DNA from: a virus
DNA: 37,110 bases
IMG/VR virus record: IMGVR_UViG_3300023504_000199
Strand: one strand, 5' to 3'
Shown: piece after piece, positions 1-37,110 of the stretch
Layout: each line of letters begins with the position of its first letter
How positions within the stretch are numbered: the first letter of the stretch is position 1
Translations under genes and position numbers: made by a program
The notes under the pieces: generated by a model
What the model saw: the letters and a program-made list of their open reading frames with translations, nothing else
Databases searched by the model: none
What the model was told of the DNA's origin: nothing

Positions 1-55
1 TCCCTCCTATCTTATAGATCCTTGTACCATGAGTTTTCTTTGAATGTTTTATCAT
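1..55. repeat. 55-bp terminal duplication, copy 1 (identical to 37056..37110); looks like a circular-assembly overlap
   Basis: The string tccctcctatcttatagatccttgtaccatgagttttctttgaatgttttatcat occurs at both window ends. Gene order is continuous across the junction. Confidence 0.9.
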
Positions 56-1370
56 CTTCTTTGAACTTCCATAAGTTTATAGTACAACCTTGATATTTTA
101 TGTATTCAGTCCAAGACTTATGAAAAGTACTTAAACCATAGTAGCCTTTGCAGAATTTTACGGCTTCTGTAAAACTCCATGCTACTCTCTTTGTTCCCCA
201 GCTTATTACGTATACATCAAGGAATCTCGGATTCCCCCATTTTTTTTCAGCTTCGTTATCAGAAGATTTATCCAGGAATATATCGAAGTCAGTAGTATAT
301 CCTCCTGTATCTGTTACTGTAACTATTCCATCTGTATTACCAAATTTACCCTTTAAATAAGGGATATATAATTTGGTCCCATATGGCATGTTATGTGCAC
401 CAACTGTTTTAGCAACCTTTAGTCCTAATCCAGATGCACTTCCACTATCACCGCCATAGCTTGTACAACGTGCTTTTTCAAATCTATATATATATTTATT
501 TCCGTCTATAATGCCTGTTTCATCAAAGCAATTTGGAGTTTCAATCGTAGGTGTTGGTGTAGGTGTTGGTGTTGGTTCCGGCTCATCTCCACTGTCATCT
601 CCTCCAGGATCTGGAATAACTATTTTTTCTGCTATAGCATTTATCAGTACATCTCCTGTTATAGCAAGTATATTTATAACACCATCTGCATAACATTCTT
701 CCGTTATATCTTCGCCTCCCATAATCACAATTACAGAGTTTAATTTATAACCTTCATTTGCTATTATAGTAGCTTTATATGTTGCATTTTCATCAAGCTT
801 CACAGCAAGATTACTTGTCATAGCATTTGTTAAGTTATTAGTTATCGTATATTCAACTTTATCATCTTCATCAAATAACGAATAATCAAAACTCGCTACT
901 TCTATTACAGATGTTTCACCTGTCTCATCATCTAGAAGTGTTAATTTAACTGTACCTTCTGTTTCTATTTCCCCAGCATCGTCCATATCAATTAAGTCAT
1001 CATTAACGTAATATGAAAATTTTTCTGTCGTCACTATTCTTTCATTAGTTTTTTCATCAATAACTAATATTTGACACTCGTATGATCCAGCTATATTTTT
1101 GTAATTATAAGGCAGATTACAATAAAATAAGCCTTTTTGATTTCTACTACTTTGTAATAACTTAGGTGGCAATTTCTCTTTATTTGGATTTATAACAAAT
1201 AAGATAGTTTTATATGACGTTAAATCTATTTCTGCTTTATTTTTAGTTATAAGTATAAAAAAATCCGATGTATTTACATCAGATCTAGAAAAAGATAAAT
1301 TTATATCGTTATACATTTTTTCTGTGATATCTAACTTAACTGTTTTATATCTTTTGTCTATATTACTCAT
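12..1370 (-). CDS. Tail fibre/tail-associated protein with (PT)n linker and C-terminal 3D (MltA-like double-psi beta-barrel) cell-wall-lytic domain
   Basis: 452-aa ORF with GGAGG RBS at 1377-1383. It has an EPEPTPTPTPTPT linker. The C-terminus reads GTKLYIPYL...GIVTVTDTGG...DFDIFLD, typical of 3D domains. It sits after the other tail-tip genes. Confidence 0.6.
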   Translation of the reverse strand: MSNIDKRYKTVKLDITEKMYNDINLSFSRSDVNTSDFFILITKNKAEIDLTSYKTILFVINPNKEKLPPKLLQSSRNQKGLFYCNLPYNYKNIAGSYECQILVIDEKTNERIVTTEKFSYYVNDDLIDMDDAGEIETEGTVKLTLLDDETGETSVIEVASFDYSLFDEDDKVEYTITNNLTNAMTSNLAVKLDENATYKATIIANEGYKLNSVIVIMGGEDITEECYADGVINILAITGDVLINAIAEKIVIPDPGGDDSGDEPEPTPTPTPTPTIETPNCFDETGIIDGNKYIYRFEKARCTSYGGDSGSASGLGLKVAKTVGAHNMPYGTKLYIPYLKGKFGNTDGIVTVTDTGGYTTDFDIFLDKSSDNEAEKKWGNPRFLDVYVISWGTKRVAWSFTEAVKFCKGYYGLSTFHKSWTEYIKYQGCTINLWKFKEDDKTFKENSWYKDL

Positions 1371-1387
1371 TAATATTCCTCCTTATG

Positions 1388-2827
1388 CTATGCTGTTCTA
1401 ATTAGCTTAGGTGTAAATTTATATCCAGTACTATTTTTAACTTTAGAAATATAAATATATATGTATATTTCCGCAAAATCTTCTGTAACAGTAAATGTAG
1501 CACCATCTCCTAAATCCCATGCTAAATCTGTTCCATCTTTTTTCTTTATTGAAAGTCCCCATGTTTTACCTGTTGTTACATCTGAGCGCTTTGGACATCC
1601 AGTTAATTTATAAGTGCCTTTCTTTAGATACTGAGGATAAGATTTATGAGATAAATAGAAAGTGGTACTACTTGTAGGTTGTCCTGTTGTTTCTATACTT
1701 AAATCTGTATTAACCTTAAATTTCATACTATTTAGTGTTAATGTTTTACCTACTTTACAACTTTTATATGTTAATGGCATAAGGTTTATTGTTTCATTTA
1801 TTTCAGATACATCAATTCTCGGTCTATAATCTGGTCTAACTACGAAGACTATATCATCTCTTGATGTCGATTTAGTTCTTATACATACATTTTCTGTAGA
1901 TGTAACATTGTAATATTCAAAATATGTAACCTTACCATTTGCATCACGTTGTATATATTTTTCTTCAGCTACAATTCCAACGTGACTTATATTTTTAAAA
2001 CGATTTTTTATTTTATATGTTCCATCCGCATTTTTGCCTGCATGACAAGTAATATCCCCTGGCATTACTTCATCTATAGGAACAAGTCTACTATAAAAAT
2101 ACTCTGCTATATCTGCAGCATATCTTACTTTTCCTCTATCATGTGCCCATGGGAATTTACTTATAGGAACTATTGTACTTGCATCAATAGTCTTATTATT
2201 CCCTGATGCATTTACAAATGGTGAATTGGCAAAATCTATTCCTAAGAATGCTACTAATACAAGAAATGTAGAGCAATCAAATAATATATTTCCAACTGAA
2301 TTTGTAAGTTTACCTTCAAATATACTCTTTCCAGCTGAATACGTAAATTTTATTTGACCATCAACTCTAGCATCCCAATAACTTCTTGCAGCTTGAACAG
2401 CTTGGTTTGCATAGCAACCACTCCAAACTATTTTATCATCTACATCAAAAGAACTGCCTTGTTCAGCAGTCCCATTTACTCCAAATATACTTTTACCTTT
2501 TACTATATTTTCTCCTTTTAGATTTATATCTCCTAATATAGTTTGATCACCAGCTAGATATTGTCCTTTACTTATTACCTGATTTTGTGTTGTAGGAGTA
2601 TAAATTTTAGCAGAAAGTTTAATATCGTCAGATATTCCTGTTATATTTTCTATTCTTTCTTTTAAAGTTGCATATGGGGCCTTTGCTTCTTCAATTTCTT
2701 TGTTTACATCAACCCCCTGTGTTGAATCTATATAACATTGCCATATAGCATCATGAATAGCTTTTCTTATATCAATCCCATATACAGCATTTTTTATATT
2801 ATTCAATAATTTATTTATACTTGGCAT
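1388..2827 (-). CDS. Tail fibre/host-interaction protein with NlpC/P60-like cysteine peptidase core
   Basis: 479-aa ORF with RBS GGAGGCGAAC upstream. FDCSTF (catalytic Cys context) and ISHVGIV (His context) are spaced as in NlpC/P60. The N-terminal IKNAVYGIDIRKAIHDAI motif is typical of phage fibre N-termini. Confidence 0.55.
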   Translation of the reverse strand: MPSINKLLNNIKNAVYGIDIRKAIHDAIWQCYIDSTQGVDVNKEIEEAKAPYATLKERIENITGISDDIKLSAKIYTPTTQNQVISKGQYLAGDQTILGDINLKGENIVKGKSIFGVNGTAEQGSSFDVDDKIVWSGCYANQAVQAARSYWDARVDGQIKFTYSAGKSIFEGKLTNSVGNILFDCSTFLVLVAFLGIDFANSPFVNASGNNKTIDASTIVPISKFPWAHDRGKVRYAADIAEYFYSRLVPIDEVMPGDITCHAGKNADGTYKIKNRFKNISHVGIVAEEKYIQRDANGKVTYFEYYNVTSTENVCIRTKSTSRDDIVFVVRPDYRPRIDVSEINETINLMPLTYKSCKVGKTLTLNSMKFKVNTDLSIETTGQPTSSTTFYLSHKSYPQYLKKGTYKLTGCPKRSDVTTGKTWGLSIKKKDGTDLAWDLGDGATFTVTEDFAEIYIYIYISKVKNSTGYKFTPKLIRTA

Positions 2828-3024: not shown

Positions 3025-4391
3025 GTAGTTGTACCTCCTTCTAATTTTGTTAGTCTCTCTTTAATGTTTTTAATTTCGTTATTTACTTTATTGAAATTTT
3101 CATTTATTGTATTAACAAAATTATTATATGTTGTCTTTTTAACATATCCGGATAAATCGCCTTCCAATATTTCAACTTTTTTTGTATTAGTTGTTACACT
3201 CTTATTTATTTTTTCTACTTTTTTAGCTGTATTTTCTACTTCTAATTTTATTTGTTCATAATTAGTTACTTGTTTTTTCGATTCTAGCTGATAATCCTTT
3301 ATATCAACTACTTTGTCTCCAAATGTAAGACTTGAAGTATGAGGATTATTAATATCTATTGTTTCTTTTACAACTCTTACATAATAATCGACATTAAAAA
3401 AAGGAACATCTAACTTGTAAAAGTTCCCCAAAGTAAATGCATCATATTTAAGTCCTAATATACTTAAATCTAATGCGGTTATATTGTTACTAATACTTAA
3501 TTTCTGTGTTTTTAGAAATTCTATAGCATTTTGCTTTAATGCATCTTTATCTTCTTCATCATCATACTCTAAAATTTTAGTAACATATCCAATTTTTTTT
3601 ATCAATTCTTCATCTTCAATATAAAGACTATTATTATTTATACTCGCTATAGTTATCCTTTCTTCACTGTCTACTTCTTTTCCCTCGCTATCTGTAGTCT
3701 TTAATTTTGCTCCAACTGGCATAACTCTTGAATAACATTGTGTTGGATCTATATCTTCTTCAAATTTTTTTAGATTAACACCTAATTTTATTTCTGTCTC
3801 TGTATATTCTCCTATTATATCTTTATAGTCGAAATAATTTATATTTTTTTCAGTTCTTATATTTACCTCTCCACCGTAAGAAGATATTAAATCTTTTATA
3901 TTTTCTAGAGAATCTTTATAATTTAGTACTATTTTTTCCTCTGCATCTACTTTGAGTGTTATTTCTCCTATATATATTTTCTTCCAATCTTCTACACATA
4001 AATTATGTGTATTTAATAAGGCAGTAATAGCTTCATTTATCGAATTATATTCCCCATAAACTTGTACACTATCTATTAGATATCCCAACTTATCTTCAGC
4101 TTTAAAAGTCTTATAAACTTTACCTTCGCTTTCTAATAAATTAGATTGTTTTAAAATCCTTCCTTCAAATACATTCTTATTTGTAAAAGTATTTAACACT
4201 CTTATTTGTGTTTTCATTGGATTTAAATAATTATATCCAATATTATCTAGAGGAATATCAAATTCAAAATTACCTACAGCATTTCTTTCTTTATTTATTT
4301 TCCCACTTAATAAACGTTTTGATATATCTTTTGCTGTAATATCACCTATTACAATATCATTATTTTCGTGATTTATAATTACCTGATACAT
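3021..4391 (-). CDS. Tail tip / Tal-like protein (prophage tail endopeptidase-family position)
   Basis: 456-aa ORF immediately after the Dit-like gene, with an ATGA-type overlap at 4391. It has a C-terminal coiled coil. The call is by synteny TMP-Dit-Tal. Confidence 0.6.
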   Translation of the reverse strand: MYQVIINHENNDIVIGDITAKDISKRLLSGKINKERNAVGNFEFDIPLDNIGYNYLNPMKTQIRVLNTFTNKNVFEGRILKQSNLLESEGKVYKTFKAEDKLGYLIDSVQVYGEYNSINEAITALLNTHNLCVEDWKKIYIGEITLKVDAEEKIVLNYKDSLENIKDLISSYGGEVNIRTEKNINYFDYKDIIGEYTETEIKLGVNLKKFEEDIDPTQCYSRVMPVGAKLKTTDSEGKEVDSEERITIASINNNSLYIEDEELIKKIGYVTKILEYDDEEDKDALKQNAIEFLKTQKLSISNNITALDLSILGLKYDAFTLGNFYKLDVPFFNVDYYVRVVKETIDINNPHTSSLTFGDKVVDIKDYQLESKKQVTNYEQIKLEVENTAKKVEKINKSVTTNTKKVEILEGDLSGYVKKTTYNNFVNTINENFNKVNNEIKNIKERLTKLEGGTTT

Positions 4392-5086
4392 TAGATTACC
4401 TCTATTTTATATTTAAATTGTATATTCCCATTGCCAATTATGGTTAATTTATTTACACCTGTATTTAACTTAAAATCCGTACTTTCTGTAGTTCCCATTG
4501 GAATTAGGTATTTTACATTATTTCTATATATTTCAAAGCTATTATCAGCTATAATTTTAGGAACAACTTCAACTATTGAGTTATTAATTAAACTTATTTC
4601 TCTAGCTTCATTTATGATAAACGTTGTTTGTTGTAATATATCTGTTAAAAAACAAAAATCATCCCATAGCATTTCACCTTCATATTCATTTTTTATTCTA
4701 AAAGGATATCCTTCAAAAGTTGCCTTTATAGTTCCATATGTTTTAAGATCTTCAAAGTCAATCTCTATACATTCTGCTAAAAAATGATATCCTGGTGTTA
4801 CTTCATCTCTCAATTCCGTTTTTTCATTGCTTGAATATAACCAGTTTTCTACAACGATCCTTATAGCCTCTAAATTATGTTTAAACATTTCATCTACAAA
4901 AAATTTATATTCTAATTTTCTTGGTTCAAAAATTTGTGAACCATATAAAAAAGAAAAATCATATATAACGTTTGAGAAAGGTATTTCTTCTGTTACCTTC
5001 TTTTTAGCTGGTGTCGAAATATTACGTTCTAGCACTTTTAATCCTAAATCCCAGGAATATTTATTGTTATATTTTATTCCATACAT
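4391..5086 (-). CDS. Distal tail protein (Dit-like, phage tail family)
   Basis: 231-aa ORF directly downstream of the tape measure gene. Size and position are typical of siphovirus Dit. Confidence 0.65.
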   Translation of the reverse strand: MYGIKYNNKYSWDLGLKVLERNISTPAKKKVTEEIPFSNVIYDFSFLYGSQIFEPRKLEYKFFVDEMFKHNLEAIRIVVENWLYSSNEKTELRDEVTPGYHFLAECIEIDFEDLKTYGTIKATFEGYPFRIKNEYEGEMLWDDFCFLTDILQQTTFIINEAREISLINNSIVEVVPKIIADNSFEIYRNNVKYLIPMGTTESTDFKLNTGVNKLTIIGNGNIQFKYKIEVI

Positions 5087-7501
5087 TTAGAGTTGCCACC
5101 TTTCTTTTAATTGTAATCTTTCACCACTTAATTTATCTGTTGTATCAGCTATAGTTTTACTTAATTTTACCTTATCAATTTCTATTACTGGATTATTCAT
5201 ACCTGTTGTTTTTATTGCCTCTTTAAAAGATTCTAATAATATATTTCCTAATCTACTATAATCAATCTCTTTAGATTTTGTTGTATTAGATGTTTTAGGG
5301 TTAAAATTCGATGTTATACTATTTGCCATTTGTTTTGATTTACTTGATATTGCTTTAATTTTATTATCTAAACCTTGTACAAGACCTTCTCCAGTATATT
5401 CTCCAAGTTCCATCATTACTCTTGAAGGCGAATGTATACCAAGTATACCTTTAACCTTTGATGTTATTGCATTAGCTACATTCTTACAGGCATCCTTTAC
5501 TGCATTAACTTTACTTTTTATCCCATTAATAAGGCCTTGAATTGCATTTTTACCTATATTAACTAAGTTTATACCTTTTATTTTGTTTATTATGCCATCT
5601 TTAATACTTTGTGCAACTTGTATAACCCTAGATTTCATGTTATTAAACGTATTTATAAAACCATTCTTTATATTGTTTACTGTGTTTATCACACCACTTT
5701 TCAAAGCATTAATAGAATTAATTACACTACTTTTCAAATTATTAAAAGTATTCATCACATTACTTTTTAAATTATTAAAGGCATTTACAACTTGATTTTT
5801 TAGTTCTATAGCCTTAGCTTTTACTGTGTCCCAGTTTTTATAAAGTAGCACTCCTGCTGCAACAACTGCTGCTATTACAGCTATAATAGCTATTAATGGT
5901 AATGATACTGCTCCTATTCCTACTCCTAGTGCACTTGCAGCAGTCGCAACTGCAGTAAAAATTGGTGCTAAAGTTGTGAGTATTCCAACTAATATTGTTA
6001 TTACAGATACTATAGCTACAATAGCAGCTGATAATTGGGGATTTGCTTGTATCCATTCCGCTATTTTACCTATTACATTAGCAATAGCTAACATTACTGG
6101 TGCAAGGGCCAACTGAATTTGACTTATTGCCTGTGACATTGCAACTGCTGGATCTGAATTTAATGTTTCAACCGAACTATTTAAACCCTCCATATTCTCC
6201 TCTGCATTGCCTAAGTTATCACTCATTCCTAATATTGTATCTGTTATATTTTCGCCATTTTCTTCCCATAGTGTTCCAAAAATCTTTGTTCCAAGTTGAT
6301 TTTGAAGGGTTTTATCATCTACTTCTGATAAAGCTTTTGCTACTTCTTGCATCGCAGTTTTTCCGCCTTCTCCACCTTCTGCAACTGCTTGACCCCACTT
6401 TTGTAGTTGTTCCCCTGAAATACCTACCTTTTGGAATAATTTTGCAGTTTCTGCATCTACACCTTGACCAAACTCAGCTAATACAATACGACCTTCTTTA
6501 AGTCCATCTAATAAAACATCTATATTCCAAGTTCCTGTCTCTACTCCCGCTGCCATTATCCCTTGGATTTCTTCAGCACTATATCCTGCTCTTTCTAACT
6601 GTGAACCATATTCTGTTATTATATCAATTTGGTCTGGTGGGAATCCTATTTTTAGTAAGCTATCTACCATACCTAGAGCTTGTTCATCAGATATATTAAG
6701 ACAGTCTGCAAGTTCATTAGATTCTTGTATTAATTCGGTAAAATCTACATCTCCATATGCAGCACAAATTGCTGCTGCTCCTTGTACTACTCTAGAATTT
6801 GATTCATCTGAAGCATCTGCATTTAATGCCCATTGTCTTCGTATACCTTCTAATGCAGCTTCACTATCTACACCATAGCTTTCTACAATTGCTCCAGCTT
6901 CTTTTACTGCTTGCTTACTCTCTTCAGATACTTCCATACTTATATCTATTTTTGTATCTAGACTAGATGTGTCTAATGCCTGTTCTATAGCTTCTCCTAT
7001 AGTCCCTACTGCTGCCGCTCCTGCTGCAAGGTCTAATAATTCATTTCCAAGACCTTCAACTCCATCTGCTGCTTCATCTGTTGATTCATCTAGTTGTTGC
7101 ATATCTTGCCTTACTTGTTGTATATCATTTCCGGAATCAACATCTTGAAGTGAATTTTGTAGATTTTCTAATTCTCTTTCTGTAAATTCAATTTCTCTTC
7201 TAAAGGCTCTATATTGTTCCTCTCCTATATCCCCACTAGAAAATTTTTGGTCCACTTGTTCCTGTGCATCTTTAAGTCTCTGTAGCTTTTCTTCAGTATT
7301 TTGAATTTGTCTAGCTAATAACTCTTGTTTTTGTGCTAATGCTTCAGTATTACCCGGGTCGAATTTCAAAAGTCGCTCTACATCTCTTAATTCACTTTGC
7401 AAATCAATTGATTTTTTATTTACATCCGATAAAGATTCTTGTAAACCAGTTGTATTTCCATCAATTTCTATAGTAATTCCTTTTATCCTACTTTTTGCCA
7501 T
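5087..7501 (-). CDS. Tail tape measure protein
   Basis: 804 aa with an N-terminal coiled coil, a central hydrophobic TM-like block (AAIVAIVSVITILVGILTTLAPIF...) and repeat-rich C-terminal half. It follows the chaperone pair. RBS GGAGGTGAGGA. Confidence 0.9.
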   Translation of the reverse strand: MAKSRIKGITIEIDGNTTGLQESLSDVNKKSIDLQSELRDVERLLKFDPGNTEALAQKQELLARQIQNTEEKLQRLKDAQEQVDQKFSSGDIGEEQYRAFRREIEFTERELENLQNSLQDVDSGNDIQQVRQDMQQLDESTDEAADGVEGLGNELLDLAAGAAAVGTIGEAIEQALDTSSLDTKIDISMEVSEESKQAVKEAGAIVESYGVDSEAALEGIRRQWALNADASDESNSRVVQGAAAICAAYGDVDFTELIQESNELADCLNISDEQALGMVDSLLKIGFPPDQIDIITEYGSQLERAGYSAEEIQGIMAAGVETGTWNIDVLLDGLKEGRIVLAEFGQGVDAETAKLFQKVGISGEQLQKWGQAVAEGGEGGKTAMQEVAKALSEVDDKTLQNQLGTKIFGTLWEENGENITDTILGMSDNLGNAEENMEGLNSSVETLNSDPAVAMSQAISQIQLALAPVMLAIANVIGKIAEWIQANPQLSAAIVAIVSVITILVGILTTLAPIFTAVATAASALGVGIGAVSLPLIAIIAVIAAVVAAGVLLYKNWDTVKAKAIELKNQVVNAFNNLKSNVMNTFNNLKSSVINSINALKSGVINTVNNIKNGFINTFNNMKSRVIQVAQSIKDGIINKIKGINLVNIGKNAIQGLINGIKSKVNAVKDACKNVANAITSKVKGILGIHSPSRVMMELGEYTGEGLVQGLDNKIKAISSKSKQMANSITSNFNPKTSNTTKSKEIDYSRLGNILLESFKEAIKTTGMNNPVIEIDKVKLSKTIADTTDKLSGERLQLKERWQL
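5495..5800 (-). repeat. In-frame approx. 11-aa periodic repeats inside the tape measure gene
   Basis: VVNAFNNLKSN / VMNTFNNLKSS / VINSINALKSG / VINTVNNIKNG / FINTFNNMKSR / VIQVAQSIKDG ... read from the translation. Confidence 0.5.
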
Positions 7502-28627: not shown

Positions 28628-29695
28628 TTATTGGTTTCCGGCCTTATTACTATCTGAAGCATCTACTATTTTGGTAGGTGCTTCTTTTATATTAAAACAT
28701 TGTATCTCTCTTACACTACTTCCTGTAAAAATCTTTCCATGCCCCTCACCTCTAAGTTTAGTTAAGGAATCATAATCTCCACAAACTACTTTACTTGCTT
28801 CTTTTGTATTTACTTTTAGTCCAATCTTGGTATTTATATTAGATTTTAATAATCCAGGTAGTATTTCTGCATATGGTGTCTGGGTTGTCAATATAACATA
28901 AATGCTTGCTGCTCTACCTTTTGCTAATAACTCTCCTAGTAATCTATAAAATTCCTTATCTACCTTTGGATTAAAACTCGCTAACTCTTCTATTATTAAG
29001 AATATATCTTTATATCTTCTATCTTTATTTCTTCTTAAAGTTTTATATCTTCTATTCATTTCTTCTATTAACTCTTCCATAATATCCTCTATACCATCTT
29101 TACCTTCACCATAATACTTACATTTATCTTTATATTGATACAAATCTATTAATTTTGTATCTTGAATATATAAATCTACATTTTTTCTTTTGATTAAATT
29201 ATTTACAATTACATCTAAACAAACTGATTTACCTGAGCCAGTTGCCCCTGCAATCAATAAATGGCATTCATTTGATGATCTGTAATACCAGTAAACAATG
29301 TTGTGTGTATCTAAATCTATTCCAACTGGAACTCCCTTTTTATCGTCAAAGCAAAAATCATTATAATTATATTTTTCATCATTGTTATTTATATGAATTA
29401 ATATTAATGTATTTTTATACTTTATTTTTAATTTATCTGAATTTACTTTTAGAAAAGTTGCTATCTCTATTTTATATTTCATAAAGTCATTTACTGAAAG
29501 GCCTGTCGGAATAGTGAAATAAAAATTATTATCTTTATATTGGTGATGTAGTATAGGATATTCTCCACTTCTATTACATAAACCAAGTTCATAAAATAAT
29601 TTATCCCAATTATACTTCTTTTTAAATACTATATTCTCTATTGCTTTAGCAGCATTAAATATACTATCTACTAATAGATTAATCAAATATATCAC
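28628..29695 (-). CDS. FtsK/SpoIIIE-family DNA translocase-like ATPase
   Basis: GVPVGIDLDTHNIVYW...HLLIAGATGSGKS (Walker A), IFLIIEELASF (Walker B), RAASIYVILTTQTP, and KIGLKV...SKVV. 355 aa, no TM segments seen. Confidence 0.85.
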   Translation of the reverse strand: MIYLINLLVDSIFNAAKAIENIVFKKKYNWDKLFYELGLCNRSGEYPILHHQYKDNNFYFTIPTGLSVNDFMKYKIEIATFLKVNSDKLKIKYKNTLILIHINNNDEKYNYNDFCFDDKKGVPVGIDLDTHNIVYWYYRSSNECHLLIAGATGSGKSVCLDVIVNNLIKRKNVDLYIQDTKLIDLYQYKDKCKYYGEGKDGIEDIMEELIEEMNRRYKTLRRNKDRRYKDIFLIIEELASFNPKVDKEFYRLLGELLAKGRAASIYVILTTQTPYAEILPGLLKSNINTKIGLKVNTKEASKVVCGDYDSLTKLRGEGHGKIFTGSSVREIQCFNIKEAPTKIVDASDSNKAGNQ

Positions 29696-30254
29696 CTGCC
29701 TTTTCTATTCTTATGCTATCATAAATAACTTTTATATCTTTCATTCTCTTATTTAATCCTTGATTATTAATAACATATAACGTAGGCATAACAGGCCACT
29801 CTGTATTTTCTATTATTATATCTTTAATTTCTTTATACTTTGATAAGCAGTCATTCGGACTTATTTGGACTTCAAGTAAAATTCTTTTTATTCTTTTATT
29901 TTTTCTTATTTTTAGGTATGCATCTGGAATGATATTGCCTATTTTGGGGCTTTTCTTAAACTCTAAAATTTCATATCCATTTTTTATAAGCTTCACTAAA
30001 AAATCAGTTATATAGAGATCATGTGCTATTAATCTTTTCTTTGGTCTTTTATCTAGATAATATACATACATGTTTTTTGTACCCTCTATATTAAACATTT
30101 CTCGATTTATATATCCTTCATCTGTTAATTTTTTCAATCGTCTAAGCGGTATATTTTCATGAACATCTGTAAATAATAATTCCTGTACTTGTCTTCTAGT
30201 ACATACTCTACAGACAGTCATAAATTCTAAAATTTTCAAATCACGTTCTTGCAT
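29679..30254 (-). CDS. Replication-relaxation (Replic_Relax)-like protein: N-terminal wHTH plus PD-(D/E)xK-like core
   Basis: DLKILEFMTVCRVCTRRQVQELLF...LRRLKKLTDEGYINR (wHTH), then HDLYITDF ... IIPDAYL ... LLEVQIS. It overlaps both neighbours, by 14 and 17 nt. Confidence 0.5.
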   Translation of the reverse strand: MQERDLKILEFMTVCRVCTRRQVQELLFTDVHENIPLRRLKKLTDEGYINREMFNIEGTKNMYVYYLDKRPKKRLIAHDLYITDFLVKLIKNGYEILEFKKSPKIGNIIPDAYLKIRKNKRIKRILLEVQISPNDCLSKYKEIKDIIIENTEWPVMPTLYVINNQGLNKRMKDIKVIYDSIRIEKAGDIFD

Positions 30255-30840
30255 ATTTTTTCCCCCTTTTTCTTTTTATATCTTTCATTTTTAAAATATT
30301 ATACTGCATCTTTTCTTCACAATTGTATAAAGCAAGTGAATTGACAAATTTAAAATTATTATTTTTAAATACATTTACATAGTCTTTGTCTTCTTTTATT
30401 AAAATACTCGAATCGCCTAAATTAAAAAATACTATATATTCTTTTAAAAAAATTACAAAACTCAAAGTCGTTCCAAAAAGCATATAATCTAATTTATATA
30501 CTTTGTAGTTTCTTTTATAAAACTCTCTATATACTAAGTCTCGCCACTTGTTTTTTATATCGTTTTGCACTTTTTTATTTTTTAAATCGCATATAAAGTT
30601 TTGCTCGCCTTTTTCTATATCTTCATTTAATTTATAAGTTTTCAATATCTCAAATACACTTTGACATGCAAGGTATGAACCTATATGGCTATATTTAAAT
30701 ACATCCATACTATGTCCATCTGCGACTGTACAAACTGCATAGTTTTTATACTTCTTATAAAGAAAAAAATCTTGTGATGAAGAAGATTTTACTATATTTT
30801 TATATCCAACAGCACCTTCACCAAATATATTAACTTCCAT
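30241..30840 (-). CDS. Short PP2C-like (PP2C_2-type) domain protein
   Basis: AVCTVADGHS, FGTTLSFVIF and FFNLGDSSILIK are spaced as in PP2C metal-binding motifs. At only 199 aa, the C-terminal metal-binding Asp region appears absent. RBS TAGGAGG. Confidence 0.5.
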   Translation of the reverse strand: MEVNIFGEGAVGYKNIVKSSSSQDFFLYKKYKNYAVCTVADGHSMDVFKYSHIGSYLACQSVFEILKTYKLNEDIEKGEQNFICDLKNKKVQNDIKNKWRDLVYREFYKRNYKVYKLDYMLFGTTLSFVIFLKEYIVFFNLGDSSILIKEDKDYVNVFKNNNFKFVNSLALYNCEEKMQYNILKMKDIKRKRGKKYART

Positions 30841-30910
30841 AAAACCTCCTAATAATCCTATTATTATTTAGTTTATTTAAGGTTTAATTTATTTATTCTA
30901 ATTTTTAACA

Positions 30911-30948
30911 TAAAAATAAGCACCACTTTGTGGTGCTTACTTTTATAT
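30911..30948. terminator. Bidirectional-looking terminator after the small membrane-protein gene
   Basis: aagcaccac-ttt-gtggtgctt forms a 9-bp GC-containing stem flanked by AAAAAT and ACTTTTAT. Confidence 0.65.
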
Positions 30949-30980
30949 TAAACTCGTATATTAACTTTTTTAAATTGTCA

Positions 30981-31295
30981 CTAAGATATTTCTCTTCTTT
31001 TGTTGTTTCTTTGTATATTGTTTTGGGGTGTTTTCGTCCTTTGTACTTCTTTCTTAACTGGTCTTCTACTAGTTCTTTTTGGTGTTTTATTAAAAATATA
31101 ATCTTGTCTAGCAAAAATAAGACCTACAAATAACATTGAAAAGCATAATCCACCTAAAATTAGATATACTATTCCGACACGCTCTACTCCCATTATTTTA
31201 TTACCAATCATTAGTACTAGCATTGCAAAAAAAGTTACTAATAAAGATGTAAGTAAAGTTTTAAAAATTCTTTTGAAAACATTCTTCATAACCAT
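30981..31295 (-). CDS. Small two-TM membrane protein with highly basic C-terminal tail
   Basis: TM-like LLTSLLVTFFAMLVLMI and IVYLILGGLCFSMLFVGLIF, with tail KTPKRTSRRPVKKEVQRTKTPQNNIQRNNKRRE. The ATG at 31289 is better spaced from GGGAGTGG than the ATG at 31295. Confidence 0.6.
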   Translation of the reverse strand: MVMKNVFKRIFKTLLTSLLVTFFAMLVLMIGNKIMGVERVGIVYLILGGLCFSMLFVGLIFARQDYIFNKTPKRTSRRPVKKEVQRTKTPQNNIQRNNKRREIS

Positions 31296-31428
31296 CCACT
31301 CCCAAAAATTATAATTTCCTTCAACTTATATAATAGCAAAATTTTACACAAATATCAATTGTTATCGCAATATTAATATGTTTTTGTTATATTTTGTTAT
31401 TATTTCTTAATTTCTTCATATGTATATT

Positions 31429-31448
31429 TTACAATTTATAAATTGTAA
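31429..31448. promoter_or_regulatory. Perfect 20-bp palindrome TTACAATTTATAAATTGTAA upstream of the peroxiredoxin gene (candidate operator)
   Basis: Read directly. It lies 59 nt upstream of the ATG at 31507. Confidence 0.45.
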
Positions 31449-31506
31449 CAATACTTTTGTTTTTTAATAATATAAATATAAAGATTAAATTTAAAGAGGT
31501 GATATT

Positions 31507-32034
31507 ATGCCATGTTTGCCTAACTTAGGTTCAAAAGCTCCTGATTTCACAGTAAACACTACATTCGGTCCTATCAATCTATCTGATTACTGTGGAAAAT
31601 GGGTAGTATTATTCTCCCATCCTGGAGACTTTACACCAGTATGCACTACTGAATTTATATGCTTTGCGAAGTATTATAATGAATTTAAAAAGAGAAATAC
31701 TCAACTTATAGGCCTTAGCGTCGACAGCAATGCCTCACATTTAGCATGGGTTTATAATATATGTCAACTAACAGGTATTGAAATTCCGTTTCCAATTATA
31801 GATGATTCAAACAAAACAATAGCTAAACTCTATGGAATGATTTCAAAAGATATGAGTGAAACATCAACTGTCAGAGCTGTATATATAATTGATGATAAAC
31901 AAATACTAAGAACTATCTTGTATTATCCTATGACAACTGGAAGAAATATATTTGAGATTCTTAGAATTATAGATGCTCTACAAAAATCTGATTGCGATAA
32001 TGTTGTTACACCAGCTAACTGGTTACCAGTTTAA
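31507..32034 (+). CDS. 1-Cys/Prx6-type peroxiredoxin, C-terminally truncated relative to the family
   Basis: [19 protein letters not shown] active-site motif, then RAVYIIDD...ILYYP...GRN..EILR. It ends at ...TPANWLPV followed by TAA TAG TAA. Full-length relatives continue about 40 aa further. RBS AAAGAGGTGA. Confidence 0.8.
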
Positions 32035-33462: not shown

Positions 33463-33546
33463 CTATTTTTTAGAACCTATAAAAATAGCTATAGTAAAAA
33501 CTCCTATAATACTTCCAATTCCTAAACCTATTATAAAATTAATCAT
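33463..33546 (-). CDS. 27-aa single-TM micro-protein at the head of the lysis cassette
   Basis: ATG at 33546 preceded by AAAGGAGGGAAA. Translation MINFIIGLGIGSIIGVFTIAIFIGSKK. Confidence 0.4.
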   Translation of the reverse strand: MINFIIGLGIGSIIGVFTIAIFIGSKK

Positions 33547-33577
33547 TTTCCCTCCTTTCCCTTGTCAATTTATGACA

Positions 33578-33614
33578 TTAAAAAAGAGCACCTAAAAAAT
33601 CAATAGCTACTCTT
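33578..33614 (-). terminator. Candidate terminator after the zinc-ribbon gene
   Basis: Minus RNA agaguagcu-(11 nt)-aggugcucu followed by UUUUUAAUG. Eight of nine positions pair, including one G-U. Confidence 0.45.
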
Positions 33615-33632
33615 TTCTAATTAAAATTTTAT

Positions 33633-33857
33633 CTATAAATTATATCTTTTCTTTCTTTTTCCAAATAATTCTTTTTGTTTATTCATAGAATCTAACATTG
33701 AATTTGTTGATACTATAATTACATTATTGCTATTACATTTTGGACATTTTTCATATTCTCCTATATTGATTGTAAGAGTACTGTTTTCAATCGTATATTC
33801 TAAGCCACAATCCTTACACTTTAATAAAGTATAACATTCCCATGACACTTTATTCAT
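33633..33857 (-). CDS. 4-Cys zinc-ribbon protein with basic tail, translationally coupled to the upstream metallopeptidase gene
   Basis: The preferred start MNKVSW at 33857 follows AAAGGAG. ATG overlaps the upstream stop (ATGAATAA). It carries CKDC ... CPKC and ends KRKKRYNL. Confidence 0.65.
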   Translation of the reverse strand: MNKVSWECYTLLKCKDCGLEYTIENSTLTINIGEYEKCPKCNSNNVIIVSTNSMLDSMNKQKELFGKRKKRYNL

Positions 33858-34965
33858 CTCCTTTAAATAAAGATTTAAAATCACATTTATCATATGGTGC
33901 AAGATGAGTATAATGGACATCTAACATTTCTCTAACCTGTTTCCAATTATCATGTACTTTTTGCATGTGATTAATTCCTAATTCAGTTTTCATTATACTT
34001 ATAAATTGAGGATCTGCTACATCTTCGAAACTTTTAATAAAAATAAACAATGCTTTTAAAACTCTTTCTGATATTTGATTTATTTGTTCTTCTTTAAAAA
34101 ATCCCGTATTTGACAAAGTATTAAATGCATTAAGTGCTATATAACAAATTCTTAAACCGGGTACAGGATGGGTTAAATGTTCTAATTTTTTTTTGTTTAA
34201 AATATCTTTTTTATTACTTGCACCATCAAGCCAATTATATAAAATATATAGACCTATAAGAACACCTGCTAAAAATCGTATTAATGAATCAATTATACAA
34301 CCAAAATCCCCCATTCCCATATTGATAAATGTCATTTGATACATTCTAATTTCTTCATTAATCAAAGCTGCTATAGCACAACAATCTGCATCATATTCCA
34401 ATGTTTGAATTATCATAGAATGTTCTATATTTACATTAGAACTTACTTCACATAATTCATATATTCCAAGTTTTCTTCCTAAATCACAATGACCATTATT
34501 AATATGAAAAAATTCGTGAAATACTAAAAATTTAATACAATTTTTGTATAATACTTGGTTCATTCTCCAAGGTATGACCCTTCCTACTTCTGGAATATTT
34601 GAGAATGCTTCATCCTCAACAAAATATTTAATTCTTTCCTTTAAGAATATGTTTAAACCTTTTAATATTCCTATACAATATTCTTCGTCAATTTTAGTTG
34701 CAAATGCATTTGGAATTAATGAATTTACTGAATAAACATTTATATGTGGATGATAATTATCTTTGTCCATATTAAGATTATCCCACTCAGTATTTTTTAA
34801 TCCTTCAGGTGTTATGATACAAACCTTTTTATTATTATAATATGTATTCAACATACTACTTATCCATTTTATTTCTTTATGAATAATATGATCTTCTTCA
34901 GTTATATCATCAGTATATATTCCACCATACTTAGCATAAATTTCATTAAATCGTTTTTTTATCAT
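33850..34965 (-). CDS. M48/ImmA-like HExxH zinc metallopeptidase-domain protein
   Basis: 371 aa. IPNAFAT, then FLVFHEFFHINNGH (HExxH), then QTLEYDADCCAIAAL (E..D/N..A pattern). Hydrophobic stretch FLAGVLIGLYILYNWL. RBS GGAGGAA. Confidence 0.6.
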   Translation of the reverse strand: MIKKRFNEIYAKYGGIYTDDITEEDHIIHKEIKWISSMLNTYYNNKKVCIITPEGLKNTEWDNLNMDKDNYHPHINVYSVNSLIPNAFATKIDEEYCIGILKGLNIFLKERIKYFVEDEAFSNIPEVGRVIPWRMNQVLYKNCIKFLVFHEFFHINNGHCDLGRKLGIYELCEVSSNVNIEHSMIIQTLEYDADCCAIAALINEEIRMYQMTFINMGMGDFGCIIDSLIRFLAGVLIGLYILYNWLDGASNKKDILNKKKLEHLTHPVPGLRICYIALNAFNTLSNTGFFKEEQINQISERVLKALFIFIKSFEDVADPQFISIMKTELGINHMQKVHDNWKQVREMLDVHYTHLAPYDKCDFKSLFKGDE

Positions 34966-34994
34966 TTAAATTCCTCCATTATATTGGTATATTA

Positions 34995-35029
34995 TGATAT
35001 AATAGAGTTAACAAAACACTATTATATCA
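34995..35029. promoter_or_regulatory. 11-bp perfect inverted repeat TGATATAATAG / CTATTATATCA (13-bp spacer), an extended -10-like box on each strand
   Basis: Arms at 34995-35005 and 35019-35029, lying 30-64 nt upstream of the metallopeptidase ATG. Confidence 0.45.
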
Positions 35030-35072
35030 AGAACTCACAGGTGTCGGATACCTTATGTGGGTTCTTTTTTTC
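35030..35072 (+). terminator. Plus-strand-favoured rho-independent terminator between the tail operon and the metallopeptidase cassette
   Basis: agaactcaca ... tgtgggttct (G-U on the plus strand only, C-A mismatch on the minus strand), an inner ggtg/tacc stem, then TTTTTTTTC. Confidence 0.55.
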
Positions 35073-35164
35073 ATATTTCTATAAAAAGTCTGAATATCCT
35101 CTAATTTTTGACAATAAAAAAGAACTTATTTATTAAGTCCTATGTTCTTAATATTTAATTCTTA

Positions 35165-35188
35165 TTCGCAATATTTTTAAATTGCGAA
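35165..35188 (-). terminator. Weak hairpin after the last tail gene
   Basis: ttcgcaat-atttttaa-attgcgaa. The downstream U tract is poor. Confidence 0.3.
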
Positions 35189-35198
35189 CTAAGTAAAA

Positions 35199-37049
35199 CT
35201 ATAAATTTTTTATTATTTTTGCCATTTTCCTACCAATTTTAACTTGACCTTTTGCTGTTGGGTGACCTCCATTTATACAATCGAGTTGATTTGTAACATA
35301 TTGTGAATATCCGCAATATCTAGTTTCTATATATTCGACCCCATATAATTCAGCACATTTTTTTAAAGGATTTATATAAGTATCATTAATACCTAAACCA
35401 CCTGCGGGAGTATATCCAATTGCAATAATCGCATTTGGCCAAGTATTACAAGCATAATTCAAAGTAGCTTGTATTCCTCCATAATAAGTATTTAAATTAT
35501 AATCATCTATAGATAGACTTGTTGATAATTCACCTATCTCTAAAGAATTATTTTTATCATTAGTACCCATAGCTATCACTATGTAATCTATATTTGTATT
35601 CTTATCATATGTTTTTATTTGTTCATATGCTGTTGGGACTTTACCATCTGTATAAGTAAAAGTTGCACTAGACCTAGCAGTATTTAAATTTGAAGTTTGT
35701 AAAATTTTATTTACTTCTGCTTGCCAAAGATTAGGAGCAGAAAAACTGTCACCTATTGACAAAAATACTTTTTCTGCAAGTTCATTAACACCCAAATAAT
35801 TTTTTAAATATGTGATATTATTTTTATTTCTTAAAATTGGTACTATATCATCATATGGGACAAAAGTGCTATGTAATTCGTTTCTATTAAGTCCGTGTCT
35901 ATGTAATGTAAATTTAAAATCTTCAGGAGGTGTAGAATTTGTAAGTCTACATTTTATATAAAAAGTATCATTAGGTACTATGTACTTTCCAACATTATAT
36001 GTCAAACTTTTACCAAGTGGTTGTTTTTCTTTATCATAACAAGTTATTGTATAACTTCCTCCGTACAAAGTTTCGCCAGGTACTACTTCTTCAATTCCTG
36101 ATTCATGTGCATAATAATCTCCTTGCTTATAATGGGTAATATTGGCAGGATTTATTATAGCCCATCTAAAGTTTTTTAGCACTTTTAATTTGTCTATATC
36201 TATATATTCATCTGATAAATTATCATTAAGATTTATAGTAGATTTTTTTATGCCTAATTCTATATTTTTATATATAGATTTGATAAATTGATTATCTGTT
36301 ATTTGAATATCGTACAAATTATGGTAACTATCATAATCATGTGCTTTATCTCCTAAATATACTTGTACCTGATTATTAGTAAATTGAACTCTCAGATAAT
36401 AAATACCTTCAGGAACTGTCCAAGTTGATTTATTTGAAAAAACATTACCATTAGTATATTTTTTATTTATATCATAAAAATGTACTTTTGAATAATTTTT
36501 TAAATTAACCAAATCACCAGGATTAACTTTTATATAATTACTAATTTTGTTGTTATTATAAGTATTAGTTGAATCAGTAGCATCTGAATACCAATTTCCA
36601 TCAGTAGCTGAATTTACATCTACCTCATTATAATAGAGAAATCTAATCCATGAATTTTTTTTCAATTCTATACTACCATCTTCTATACTTAATGTACTTA
36701 AAGAACCATCATCTATTTTACTTTGAATTATACTTGTTAATTGTTCATCTGTAACTACTGCTGTAGGTATTTCTACAGTTGCTACTTGTTTTCCATCATT
36801 CAGTAATTTTAATGTTTGCCCACTCATACTCATTGTTATTTTAGATAGGTCAACATCACTTCCACCTATTTCGATTCCATCACCTATAAGTGTTCCATCT
36901 TGTTTCTTAATATAAACTTTTCCATCTGTATGTTTTGTAAGAGATAAGTTCGCAATATCTTTAAATTGCGTATCTAATTTTTTGATTGATTCTCTAGCCT
37001 TTGTATCAATTATATTAAATTCTTCTATTTGATTTACTTCTTTTGCCAT
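35199..37049 (-). CDS. Tail fibre protein with C-terminal SGNH/GDSL hydrolase (esterase) domain
   Basis: 616 aa. Block I FLSIGDSFSAP, block III AMGTNDKNN, block V INGGHPT. Fibre-like N-terminus. The RBS and ATG follow the stop of the 452-aa gene across the circular junction. Confidence 0.65.
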   Translation of the reverse strand: MAKEVNQIEEFNIIDTKARESIKKLDTQFKDIANLSLTKHTDGKVYIKKQDGTLIGDGIEIGGSDVDLSKITMSMSGQTLKLLNDGKQVATVEIPTAVVTDEQLTSIIQSKIDDGSLSTLSIEDGSIELKKNSWIRFLYYNEVDVNSATDGNWYSDATDSTNTYNNNKISNYIKVNPGDLVNLKNYSKVHFYDINKKYTNGNVFSNKSTWTVPEGIYYLRVQFTNNQVQVYLGDKAHDYDSYHNLYDIQITDNQFIKSIYKNIELGIKKSTINLNDNLSDEYIDIDKLKVLKNFRWAIINPANITHYKQGDYYAHESGIEEVVPGETLYGGSYTITCYDKEKQPLGKSLTYNVGKYIVPNDTFYIKCRLTNSTPPEDFKFTLHRHGLNRNELHSTFVPYDDIVPILRNKNNITYLKNYLGVNELAEKVFLSIGDSFSAPNLWQAEVNKILQTSNLNTARSSATFTYTDGKVPTAYEQIKTYDKNTNIDYIVIAMGTNDKNNSLEIGELSTSLSIDDYNLNTYYGGIQATLNYACNTWPNAIIAIGYTPAGGLGINDTYINPLKKCAELYGVEYIETRYCGYSQYVTNQLDCINGGHPTAKGQVKIGRKMAKIIKNL

Positions 37050-37055
37050 ATTCTC

Positions 37056-37110
37056 TCCCTCCTATCTTATAGATCCTTGTACCATGAGTTTTCTTTGAAT
37101 GTTTTATCAT
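37056..37110. repeat. 55-bp terminal duplication, copy 2 (identical to 1..55)
   Basis: Exact identity read directly. Confidence 0.9.

Follow-up and report, generated by a model that had tools for sequence, protein, structure and literature searches.

Why should a temperate phage carry, between its tail fibres and its lysis genes, a self-contained pair of genes for a metallopeptidase and a zinc-ribbon protein? The question is raised by the IMG/VR virus record IMGVR_UViG_3300023504_000199, a stretch of 37,110 nucleotides (at its full length, the window) in which the two genes form a minus-strand cassette. Examination of this cassette and of related loci (designated L001 and so on) reveals a predicted M48-like zinc peptidase with a tightly coupled partner, a candidate regulatory RNA leader, and a recurrent association with tail fibres that carry a GDSL/SGNH esterase domain. 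We tentatively propose that the cassette is an exclusion or conversion protease system expressed from the prophage.

The peptidase contains IPNAFAT (residues 83-89, with NAFA at 86-89), FHEFFHINNGH (149-159, with HEFFH at 150-154), EYDADCCAIAAL (190-201, with EYDAD at 190-194) and HPVPGLR (266-272). The first three had been picked out in an initial annotation made from the letters of this DNA, and all are present in the open reading frame (ORF), which is preceded by the ribosome-binding site GGAGG at 34973-34977. An AlphaFold (AF2) model (predicted local distance difference test, pLDDT, 88; predicted template modelling score, pTM, 0.90) comprises a five-stranded sheet, the HExxH helix, a long helix with E190 and then a helical C-terminal domain, in which a further motif, QKVHDNW, is found. 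The HExxH motif (H150-E151-F-F-H154) lies at the end of helix 132-156 and is invariant in 15 close homologues; across 149 superfamily members H154 never varies, and conservation is at least 90% at H150 and E151. Alignment of the Escherichia coli proteins HtpX, BepA, LoiP and YcaL yields the invariant columns NAxA, HExxH, ExxAD and HP....R, and all four of these motifs are present in the peptidase family in the same order. At the motif level, E190-Y-D-A-D194 on helix 180-216 matches the invariant E222..A225-D226 of these paralogues, and H266-P267-V-P-G-L-R272 matches their invariant H276-P277....R282; in the 149-member alignment R272 is invariant, with H266 and P267 at least 90% conserved. The complete set of positions that are invariant or at least 90% conserved there is N86, A87, H150, E151, H154, G158, H159, E190, D192, A193, D194, H266, P267, R272 and W341. 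Given that the motif residues are invariant or nearly so in the homologues, the HExxH is not a chance occurrence, and at the level of motifs the predicted catalytic apparatus of an M48-like peptidase is intact.

A word-indexed search with the peptidase recovers only 20 relatives. When a profile is run against 1.8 billion cluster representatives, the yield rises to about 1000 proteins at E <= 1e-3, of which 236 reach E <= 1e-10; almost all have 330-400 residues. The cassette has no match among 50,697 phage records (megablast, tblastn), and among GTDB species representatives there are no close relatives of the peptidase, only distant ones in Proteobacteria, Actinobacteria and Verrucomicrobia. 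The M48-likeness put forward in the initial annotation agrees with the four motifs and with the matches of these relatives: Pfam Peptidase_M48 is matched by 14 of 56 (best E = 1.7e-7) and is the sole family to recur among them, and the relative P0024, at 22.1 bits, scores above its gathering cut-off of 20.3. Comparison by hhalign with the E. coli M48 set gives 89% probability (E = 2e-6) over the NAFA segment, and a profile search of the PDB aligns NAFA and HExxHIxNG with the HtpX fragment 3cqb (E = 0.016). Fold comparison is fainter: with the whole model Foldseek finds no PDB match at E < 0.1, the output being dominated by helical-bundle noise, and with the catalytic domain its best matches, BlaR1 (8exq, E = 0.33) and HtpX (3cqb, E = 0.84), are non-significant; against BFVD it returns one uncharacterised homologue only. 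Because the Peptidase_M48 profile is matched only through relatives, we call the protein M48-like and not a member of the family.

With the M48 family (HtpX, BepA, LoiP, YcaL and Ste24; PF01435) the protein thus shares NAxA, HExxH with GH or GD just after it, ExxAD and HP....R, and the helix-helix arrangement of the predicted zinc ligands is of the gluzincin type. It differs in falling below every threshold itself, in having about 35 extra residues between NAFA and HExxH, in its C-terminal domain with QKVHDNW, in lacking a membrane span, signal peptide and lipobox, and in being phage-borne and paired with a zinc ribbon. The lone hydrophobic stretch (224-242) is not conserved in homologues; a membrane-anchored M48 enzyme was considered and rejected, since the homologues share no conserved hydrophobic span. 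Together these comparisons directly support the prediction of a soluble cytoplasmic zinc endopeptidase on a divergent branch of the M48 (HtpX/BepA/LoiP) lineage. The likeness to ImmA/IrrE proteases (M78, COG2856) that had also been suggested is not supported. Those too are HExxH proteases of mobile elements, which cleave a neighbouring regulator, but M78 is matched by a single one of the 56 relatives, marginally (E = 0.025), and the cassette has no M78 match and no adjacent repressor of the XRE or other helix-turn-helix (HTH) kind and lies outside the lysogeny module.

The zinc-ribbon protein is composed of CxxC...CPxC (CKDC...CPKC), a helix and a basic tail, KRKKRY, and directly follows the peptidase, as the initial annotation had it. 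That annotation had started it at the ATG of the ATGAATAA overlap with the peptidase stop (ATG at 33857, giving 74 residues). The GTG at 33848 is the more probable start, because all 11 distinct homologues in the alignment begin with MSW; moreover, this GTG has a GGAG 9 nt upstream, and in front of the ATG the GGAG directly abuts. The junction then reads TAA, one base, GTG, so that the two genes are still tightly coupled. Matches to zinc-ribbon models of Pfam are weak, and the best PDB match, the zinc ribbon of ribosomal bL31 (E = 1.4e-3), is weak and generic. A search with the single 74-residue sequence found only itself; an alignment-based search recovered 63 clusters.

Gene neighborhoods tie the two proteins together. 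Approached from the peptidase, the partner is directly downstream in L001-4, L007, L010-12, L021-25 and L150-157, that is, in every Firmicute-phage locus recovered from that side; approached from the partner, the peptidase is directly upstream in three of the four contexts inspected, the fourth (L178/L179) being an orphan partner at a rearranged site. Decayed copies of the cassette occur in L005, where the partner is a pseudogene, in L149, where it is truncated (the peptidase is intact in both), and in L178. Sequence identities between loci, computed for one protein and for the other, are strongly correlated (Spearman 0.85; 66 non-independent pairs), and therefore the pair evolves as a unit. 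The co-occurrence on which the initial annotation had staked its two-gene cassette is thus borne out across Firmicute-phage loci, where the pair is kept and co-diverges, and the zinc-ribbon protein is an obligate-looking partner of the peptidase.

Two further arrangements of the small gene were observed. Tandem zinc-ribbon duplicates are present at L007 6065-6523 and L023 7050-7517; the first copy is divergent and has no basic tail, and the second is 83-90% identical to the partners in L021/L022, the adjacent peptidases being only about 38% identical, which suggests that partners can be exchanged. Beside the distant proteobacterial relatives of the peptidase the zinc ribbon is absent, and two of them have another small overlapping ORF. 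An ORF of about 60 codons following the proteobacterial peptidase relative at L014 7019-7210 and L028 4437-4610 is homologous between both loci; an XRE-type HTH gene lies upstream in L028 and a LexA-like winged-helix gene downstream in L014.

Two abutting hairpins upstream of the peptidase gene are common to loci whose proteins are only 32-64% identical. In an alignment of 14 such leader sequences 94.6% of cells pair, against 84.8% in shuffled alignments (none of 500 shuffles reaches the observed value), and pairing falls to 35-56% when the partners are slid. Hairpin 1 has compensatory changes at five of its ten pairs, with mixed wobble evidence. In hairpin 2, 98.5% of cells are paired, and all seven one-sided changes produce G.U on the coding strand (C.A on the other). 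The consensus fold computed by alifold is -20.6 kcal/mol on the coding strand as against -15.4 on the opposite one. The initial annotation had seen in hairpin 2 an 11-bp inverted repeat that holds extended -10 promoter boxes; the repeat is there, with a length of 15 bp, and its covariation, together with the restriction of one-sided changes to G.U, is more readily reconciled with an RNA stem-loop than with two -10 boxes. A sigma-A-type promoter, TTGnnn-N17-TAAAAT, is found 7-12 nt upstream of hairpin 1 in most lineages. We read both hairpins as part of the 5' leader of the mRNA and regard them as a candidate for a new cis-regulatory RNA.

Other explanations of the palindrome were considered and set aside. 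Face-to-face extended -10 promoters, one of which would give a divergent small RNA (sRNA) of about 60 nt ending at hairpin 1, were rejected because the G.U changes of hairpin 2 are confined to the coding strand, because the left arm in L023 reads TGCAAT, a poor and non-functional -10, and because in most lineages both hairpins lie downstream of the canonical promoter. That the palindrome might be an operator common to several phage promoters was rejected on its single occurrence in the phage genome. Rfam holds no match to the leader, and a search of IMG/VR with the palindrome pattern gave one unrelated instance among the matches listed.

The two terminators by which the initial annotation had bracketed the cassette fare differently. 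The downstream one, with a 14-bp stem and a U-run, stands. The upstream one is a real and conserved hairpin (hairpin 1 above), but the coding strand carries its A-run and the other strand its T-run, and the hairpin is not a standard terminator for the tail-fibre transcripts. The tail operon probably ends at a terminator-like hairpin further upstream, the homologous site of which in L010 has a clean stem and T-run; a consensus terminator scan called nothing in the upstream hairpin region, this site included.

The borders of the cassette can be drawn by comparison with 39 IMG/VR loci whose endolysin is 51-97% identical to that of the window. Searches with validated hidden Markov models (HMMs) find the peptidase or the partner in none of them. 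In L189, where the lysis module is 96.6% identical, homology with the window starts at 33613, inside the cassette terminator, and the same slot (about 4135-4285) is taken by a different, 49-codon ORF for a cysteine-rich, zinc-ribbon-like protein (MTKRIVRICSKCKTQMRLIACPDGTTKWQCQNPKCSK...) with its own ribosome-binding site and terminator. On the other side, 26-33 bp at the inverted repeat that follows the tail-fibre stop codon recur in the cassette-less L207, L218, L220 and L224 (blastn) and in L189 (read from the sequence); the repeat is also present in L001-L004 and in similar form in L010 and L024. It is kept next to quite different fibre genes, cassette present or not, and may mark a module boundary, serve in recombination or bind a protein. 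The L189 breakpoint and the shared left-border repeat thus set conserved limits on either side of a discrete cargo some 1.5 kb long. The cassette, which is found with several unrelated types of lysis module, has its own signals, and close relatives lack it or hold other cargo at the site; this directly supports its description as an autonomously transcribed accessory cargo (moron) in a variable tail-lysis slot, in line with the initial annotation. In L175 a 162-residue protein encoded between cassette and holin (4497-4985) has a weak match to GNAT acetyltransferases (E = 0.0025), of possible interest given the deacetylase-type tail fibre upstream. Coordinates of the features are collected in the table.

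Table. Features of the cassette and its borders in the window, in order from the tail-fibre side
Feature	Coordinates	Strand	Basis
616-residue tail-fibre protein with C-terminal GDSL/SGNH esterase domain (outside the cassette)	35199..37049	-	Pfam Lipase_GDSL_2
Inverted repeat TTCGCAAT-N8-ATTGCGAA, left hotspot border	35165..35188	-	Predicted hairpin; conserved after tail-fibre stop codon
Terminator-like hairpin AAGAAC...GTTCTT followed by TTTTTT, probable tail operon end	35116..35149	-	Read from sequence
Leader hairpin 1: A-run, 10-bp outer stem, inner stem, loop	35029..35071	-	Region z-score -5.5
Leader hairpin 2: 15-bp inverted repeat, 5-nt loop, TGATATAAT on both arms	34995..35030	-	Inverted-repeat scan, covariation
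Soluble M48-like zinc metallopeptidase (predicted), 371 residues	33850..34965	-	ORF, motifs, AF2 model, Peptidase_M48 matches of relatives
Zinc-ribbon partner, 71 residues from GTG	33633..33848	-	Homologue alignment, weak Pfam zinc-ribbon matches
Intrinsic terminator, right border of the cargo	33577..33622	-	Fold -21.9 kcal/mol, z = -3.25; L189 breakpoint at 33613

The cassette has a strong contextual connection with the tail fibre upstream, which matches Lipase_GDSL_2 over residues 436-602 (E = 9.7e-5, below the gathering score). A GDSL-domain protein is encoded directly upstream of the cassette, or within two small genes of it, in 18 of 19 distinct cassette lineages (the exception being L025), as against a GDSL-like protein in only two of the 39 cassette-less relatives (L207 and L223), counts that ignore relatedness among the loci. 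Detection in the 39 relatives used a local HMM that recovered five out of five held-out positives at E <= 1e-21. The contrast holds in the closest group as well, between the window with L001-4 on the one hand and L189-192 on the other. Five phages have cassettes that are 99-100% identical, and their esterase proteins are mostly only 25-31% identical; hitch-hiking of a single recombining block was considered as the source of the association and rejected on account of this divergence. In temperate phages the SGNH domains of tail fibres have polysaccharide deacetylase activity (PMC13123978). The near-exclusive pairing of the cassette with esterase-type receptor-binding proteins suggests that its target is connected with the surface structure that these fibres use. 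The claim of the initial annotation that the cassette has no structural or lysis role, made without notice of this association, is weakened by it on the tail side.

An unusual placement is seen in L012, in which the GDSL gene, the peptidase, the zinc ribbon and an extra 75-codon cysteine-rich ORF (3322-6462) lie within the head-morphogenesis genes, flanked by those for a MuF-like minor capsid protein and the scaffold.

In light of these connections, the reading that we favour, if tentatively, is that of a prophage-expressed protease system for exclusion or conversion. The cassette would be expressed from the prophage through the conserved two-hairpin leader, with transcription ending at its own terminator; the zinc-ribbon protein would act as a specificity or regulatory subunit of the protease, which would make a site-specific cut in a protein of the host or of an incoming phage; and the outcome would be exclusion of the superinfecting phage, either by abortive infection of the Lit kind or by conversion at the level of the receptor. 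We favour this reading because it accounts for the autonomy of the cassette, its patchy distribution, its decayed copies and its match with one type of receptor-binding protein. That match might be explained by likeness to serotype conversion, the genes for which lie downstream of tailspike genes, as in P22 (gtrABC), Sf6 (oac) and epsilon15 (gp21/22). Like the cassette in this reading, these are independently expressed prophage genes placed right after a receptor-binding-protein gene and matched to the receptor type; unlike it, they code for glycosyl- or acetyltransferases or polymerase inhibitors acting in Gram-negative hosts and not for proteases, so that the analogy is one of position only.

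For a protease in such a role one comparison is Lit (peptidase U49) of prophage e14, which is activated by a phage capsid peptide and cleaves EF-Tu. Lit too is an accessory, prophage-encoded, cytoplasmic zinc protease with an HExxH...E.EAD arrangement; however, the likeness is limited to the active-site helices, and Lit acts alone, whereas the window peptidase has an obligate-looking partner.

Several points weigh against exclusion or conversion. Expression in the prophage state is read only from the promoter and terminator architecture, and in the lineage of the window the upstream promoter is weak, TGATATAAT in hairpin 2 being the best promoter-like site in a promoter scan. One would hardly expect a generic defence module to follow a single tail-fibre type, and the occurrence of a 99%-identical cassette behind esterase domains that are 25-31% identical makes a single shared surface target less than obvious. 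Neither protein has a match in PADLOC-DB 2.0 at E <= 1, and the window peptidase has none in Pfam, PHROGs, PADLOC or NCBIfam, nor any M48 match at E <= 1. The Lit model (Peptidase U49/PRK09672) leaves the window protein unmatched, distant relatives reach about 17 bits against a cut-off of 274 (NCBIfam E about 2e-3), and hhalign against Lit gives a probability of 20%. A precomputed weak U49 match on the L183 peptidase was not reproduced. The pair is absent from PADLOC, Pfam and PHROGs as a named system, which agrees with the statement of the initial annotation that it belongs to no named defence system, and no description of it was found in the literature searched.

The proposal can be carried further, to a new two-component system of exclusion or lysogenic conversion in which a zinc-ribbon-guided protease under an RNA leader has a target tied to the acetylated surface glycans recognised by esterase fibres, the superfamily of about 1000 clusters, soluble M48-like proteins from mobile elements of several phyla, then being made up of unrecognised conflict proteases; in this full form we consider it doubtful.

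The association with esterase fibres could also be taken to point to the lytic cycle, with the protease and zinc ribbon processing the GDSL/SGNH tail protein, controlling its quality or cooperating with it, which we hold to be unlikely. Tail-fibre assembly genes likewise adjoin fibre genes on the downstream side and match the type of the fibre's C-terminal domain, which provides a positional analogy. The frequency with which the cassette comes right after a GDSL gene, set against the rarity of such genes in relatives without it, would agree with this, as would its position beside the GDSL gene even in the head module of L012; because lysis modules of several unrelated types accompany the cassette, its distribution follows the tail genes and not the lysis genes. 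However, a terminator-like hairpin and a structured leader separate the fibre gene from the cassette, and nearly identical cassettes next to strongly diverged esterase domains speak for an absence of co-divergence. Further, there are GDSL fibres without the cassette (L207, L223) and a cassette without a GDSL fibre (L025), and the SGNH domains of phage fibres are active when expressed alone (PMC13123978).

Less likely again is a self-contained switch built, like BlaR1/BlaI or ImmA/ImmR, from a sensor protease and a regulator, in which the basic-tailed zinc ribbon would bind nucleic acid, for instance the leader hairpins, and control expression until the protease cleaves it on a signal sensed by the C-terminal helical domain. 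The order of a protease gene followed by a small coupled partner resembles blaR1-blaI, the NAFA/HExxH core is related to that of BlaR1/MecR1 (M56), and BlaR1 is the top, if non-significant, fold match. Several features of the cassette would suit such a switch: a partner that combines a zinc ribbon resembling that of bL31 with a basic tail, the conserved structured leader before the operon, the joint loss in L005 of an intact partner and of the leader hairpins, and the HTH regulators that adjoin some of the distant proteobacterial relatives. Unlike BlaR1/MecR1, however, the window protein lacks a sensor domain, be it transmembrane or penicillin-binding, and its partner is a zinc ribbon in place of the winged-helix repressor BlaI/MecI, without an HTH or other established DNA-binding fold; moreover, there is no evident output gene, the phage genome contains no second copy of the hairpin sequence and the cassette is outside the lysogeny module.

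We regard as distinctly improbable a protease that benefits the phage by acting on the host during infection, be it in anti-defence, host takeover or envelope modification before lysis. The intact and conserved active site and the proximity of the cassette to the lysis genes in most loci would fit, but early anti-defence genes are not typically found at the far end of the late genes with a terminator to themselves, the cassette is missing from close relatives whose lysis module is the same, and in L012 it lies apart from the lysis genes.

Finally, an addiction pair of the toxin-antitoxin type, with the zinc ribbon as inhibitor of a toxic protease, could draw on the tight coupling and co-divergence of the two genes and on the tandem partners of L007 and L023, but is most improbable in view of intact peptidases beside a pseudogene (L005) or truncated partner (L149), the orphan partners of L178 and L179, a gene order that is the reverse of most type II systems, and the lack of a PADLOC match.

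To our knowledge Lit is the classic and almost the only metalloprotease among prophage exclusion systems. If exclusion or conversion is indeed the function, a protease-based mechanism would join this short list, about 1000 unannotated protein clusters would obtain their first functional handle, and the cassette would exemplify accessory genes under joint selection with one class of receptor-binding proteins, the SGNH esterases, whose place among the major routes by which temperate phages recognise their hosts has come to be appreciated only lately. Neither the enzyme class nor the concept of a prophage accessory protease is new; the family, its partner, the leader and the link to esterase fibres are not described in the libraries or literature searched. 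Even with a mundane function the family, as one of soluble M48-like peptidases, merits its own entry in Pfam or PHROGs.

The phage that carries the cassette is a temperate siphovirus of a low-GC Firmicute. The first and last 55 bases of the window (1-55 and 37056-37110) are identical, and this terminal direct repeat indicates that the phage genome, of about 37,055 bp, is complete and was assembled as a circle; its G+C content is 28%. Siphoviruses of the same size from Caldibacillus, Bacillus and Terrisporobacter have large terminases that are 64-70% identical to that of the window. On the minus strand the gene order begins with the terminase, the head and tail genes, the tape measure protein and the tail fibres, whose genes (12..2827) wrap round the circle into the esterase fibre gene. 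These are followed by the cassette and then by XhlA, a holin, an Amidase_3 endolysin, an accessory region and a tyrosine integrase, which places the cassette between tail fibres and lysis genes as the initial annotation had stated. Between the cassette terminator and xhlA, a hydrophobic ORF of 27 codons, MINFIIGLGIGSIIGVFTIAIFIGSKK (33463-33546, minus strand), with a good ribosome-binding site, is conserved in L189 and for this reason probably encodes a small membrane protein that belongs to the lysis module. The second accessory region, at 28628-32034 between endolysin and integrase, codes for an FtsK/SpoIIIE-like ATPase (355 residues), a Replic_Relax-like protein (191 residues), a PP2C phosphatase (199 residues) and, on the plus strand, an AhpC/TSA peroxiredoxin of 175 residues, and looks like a remnant of another mobile element or a set of conversion genes.

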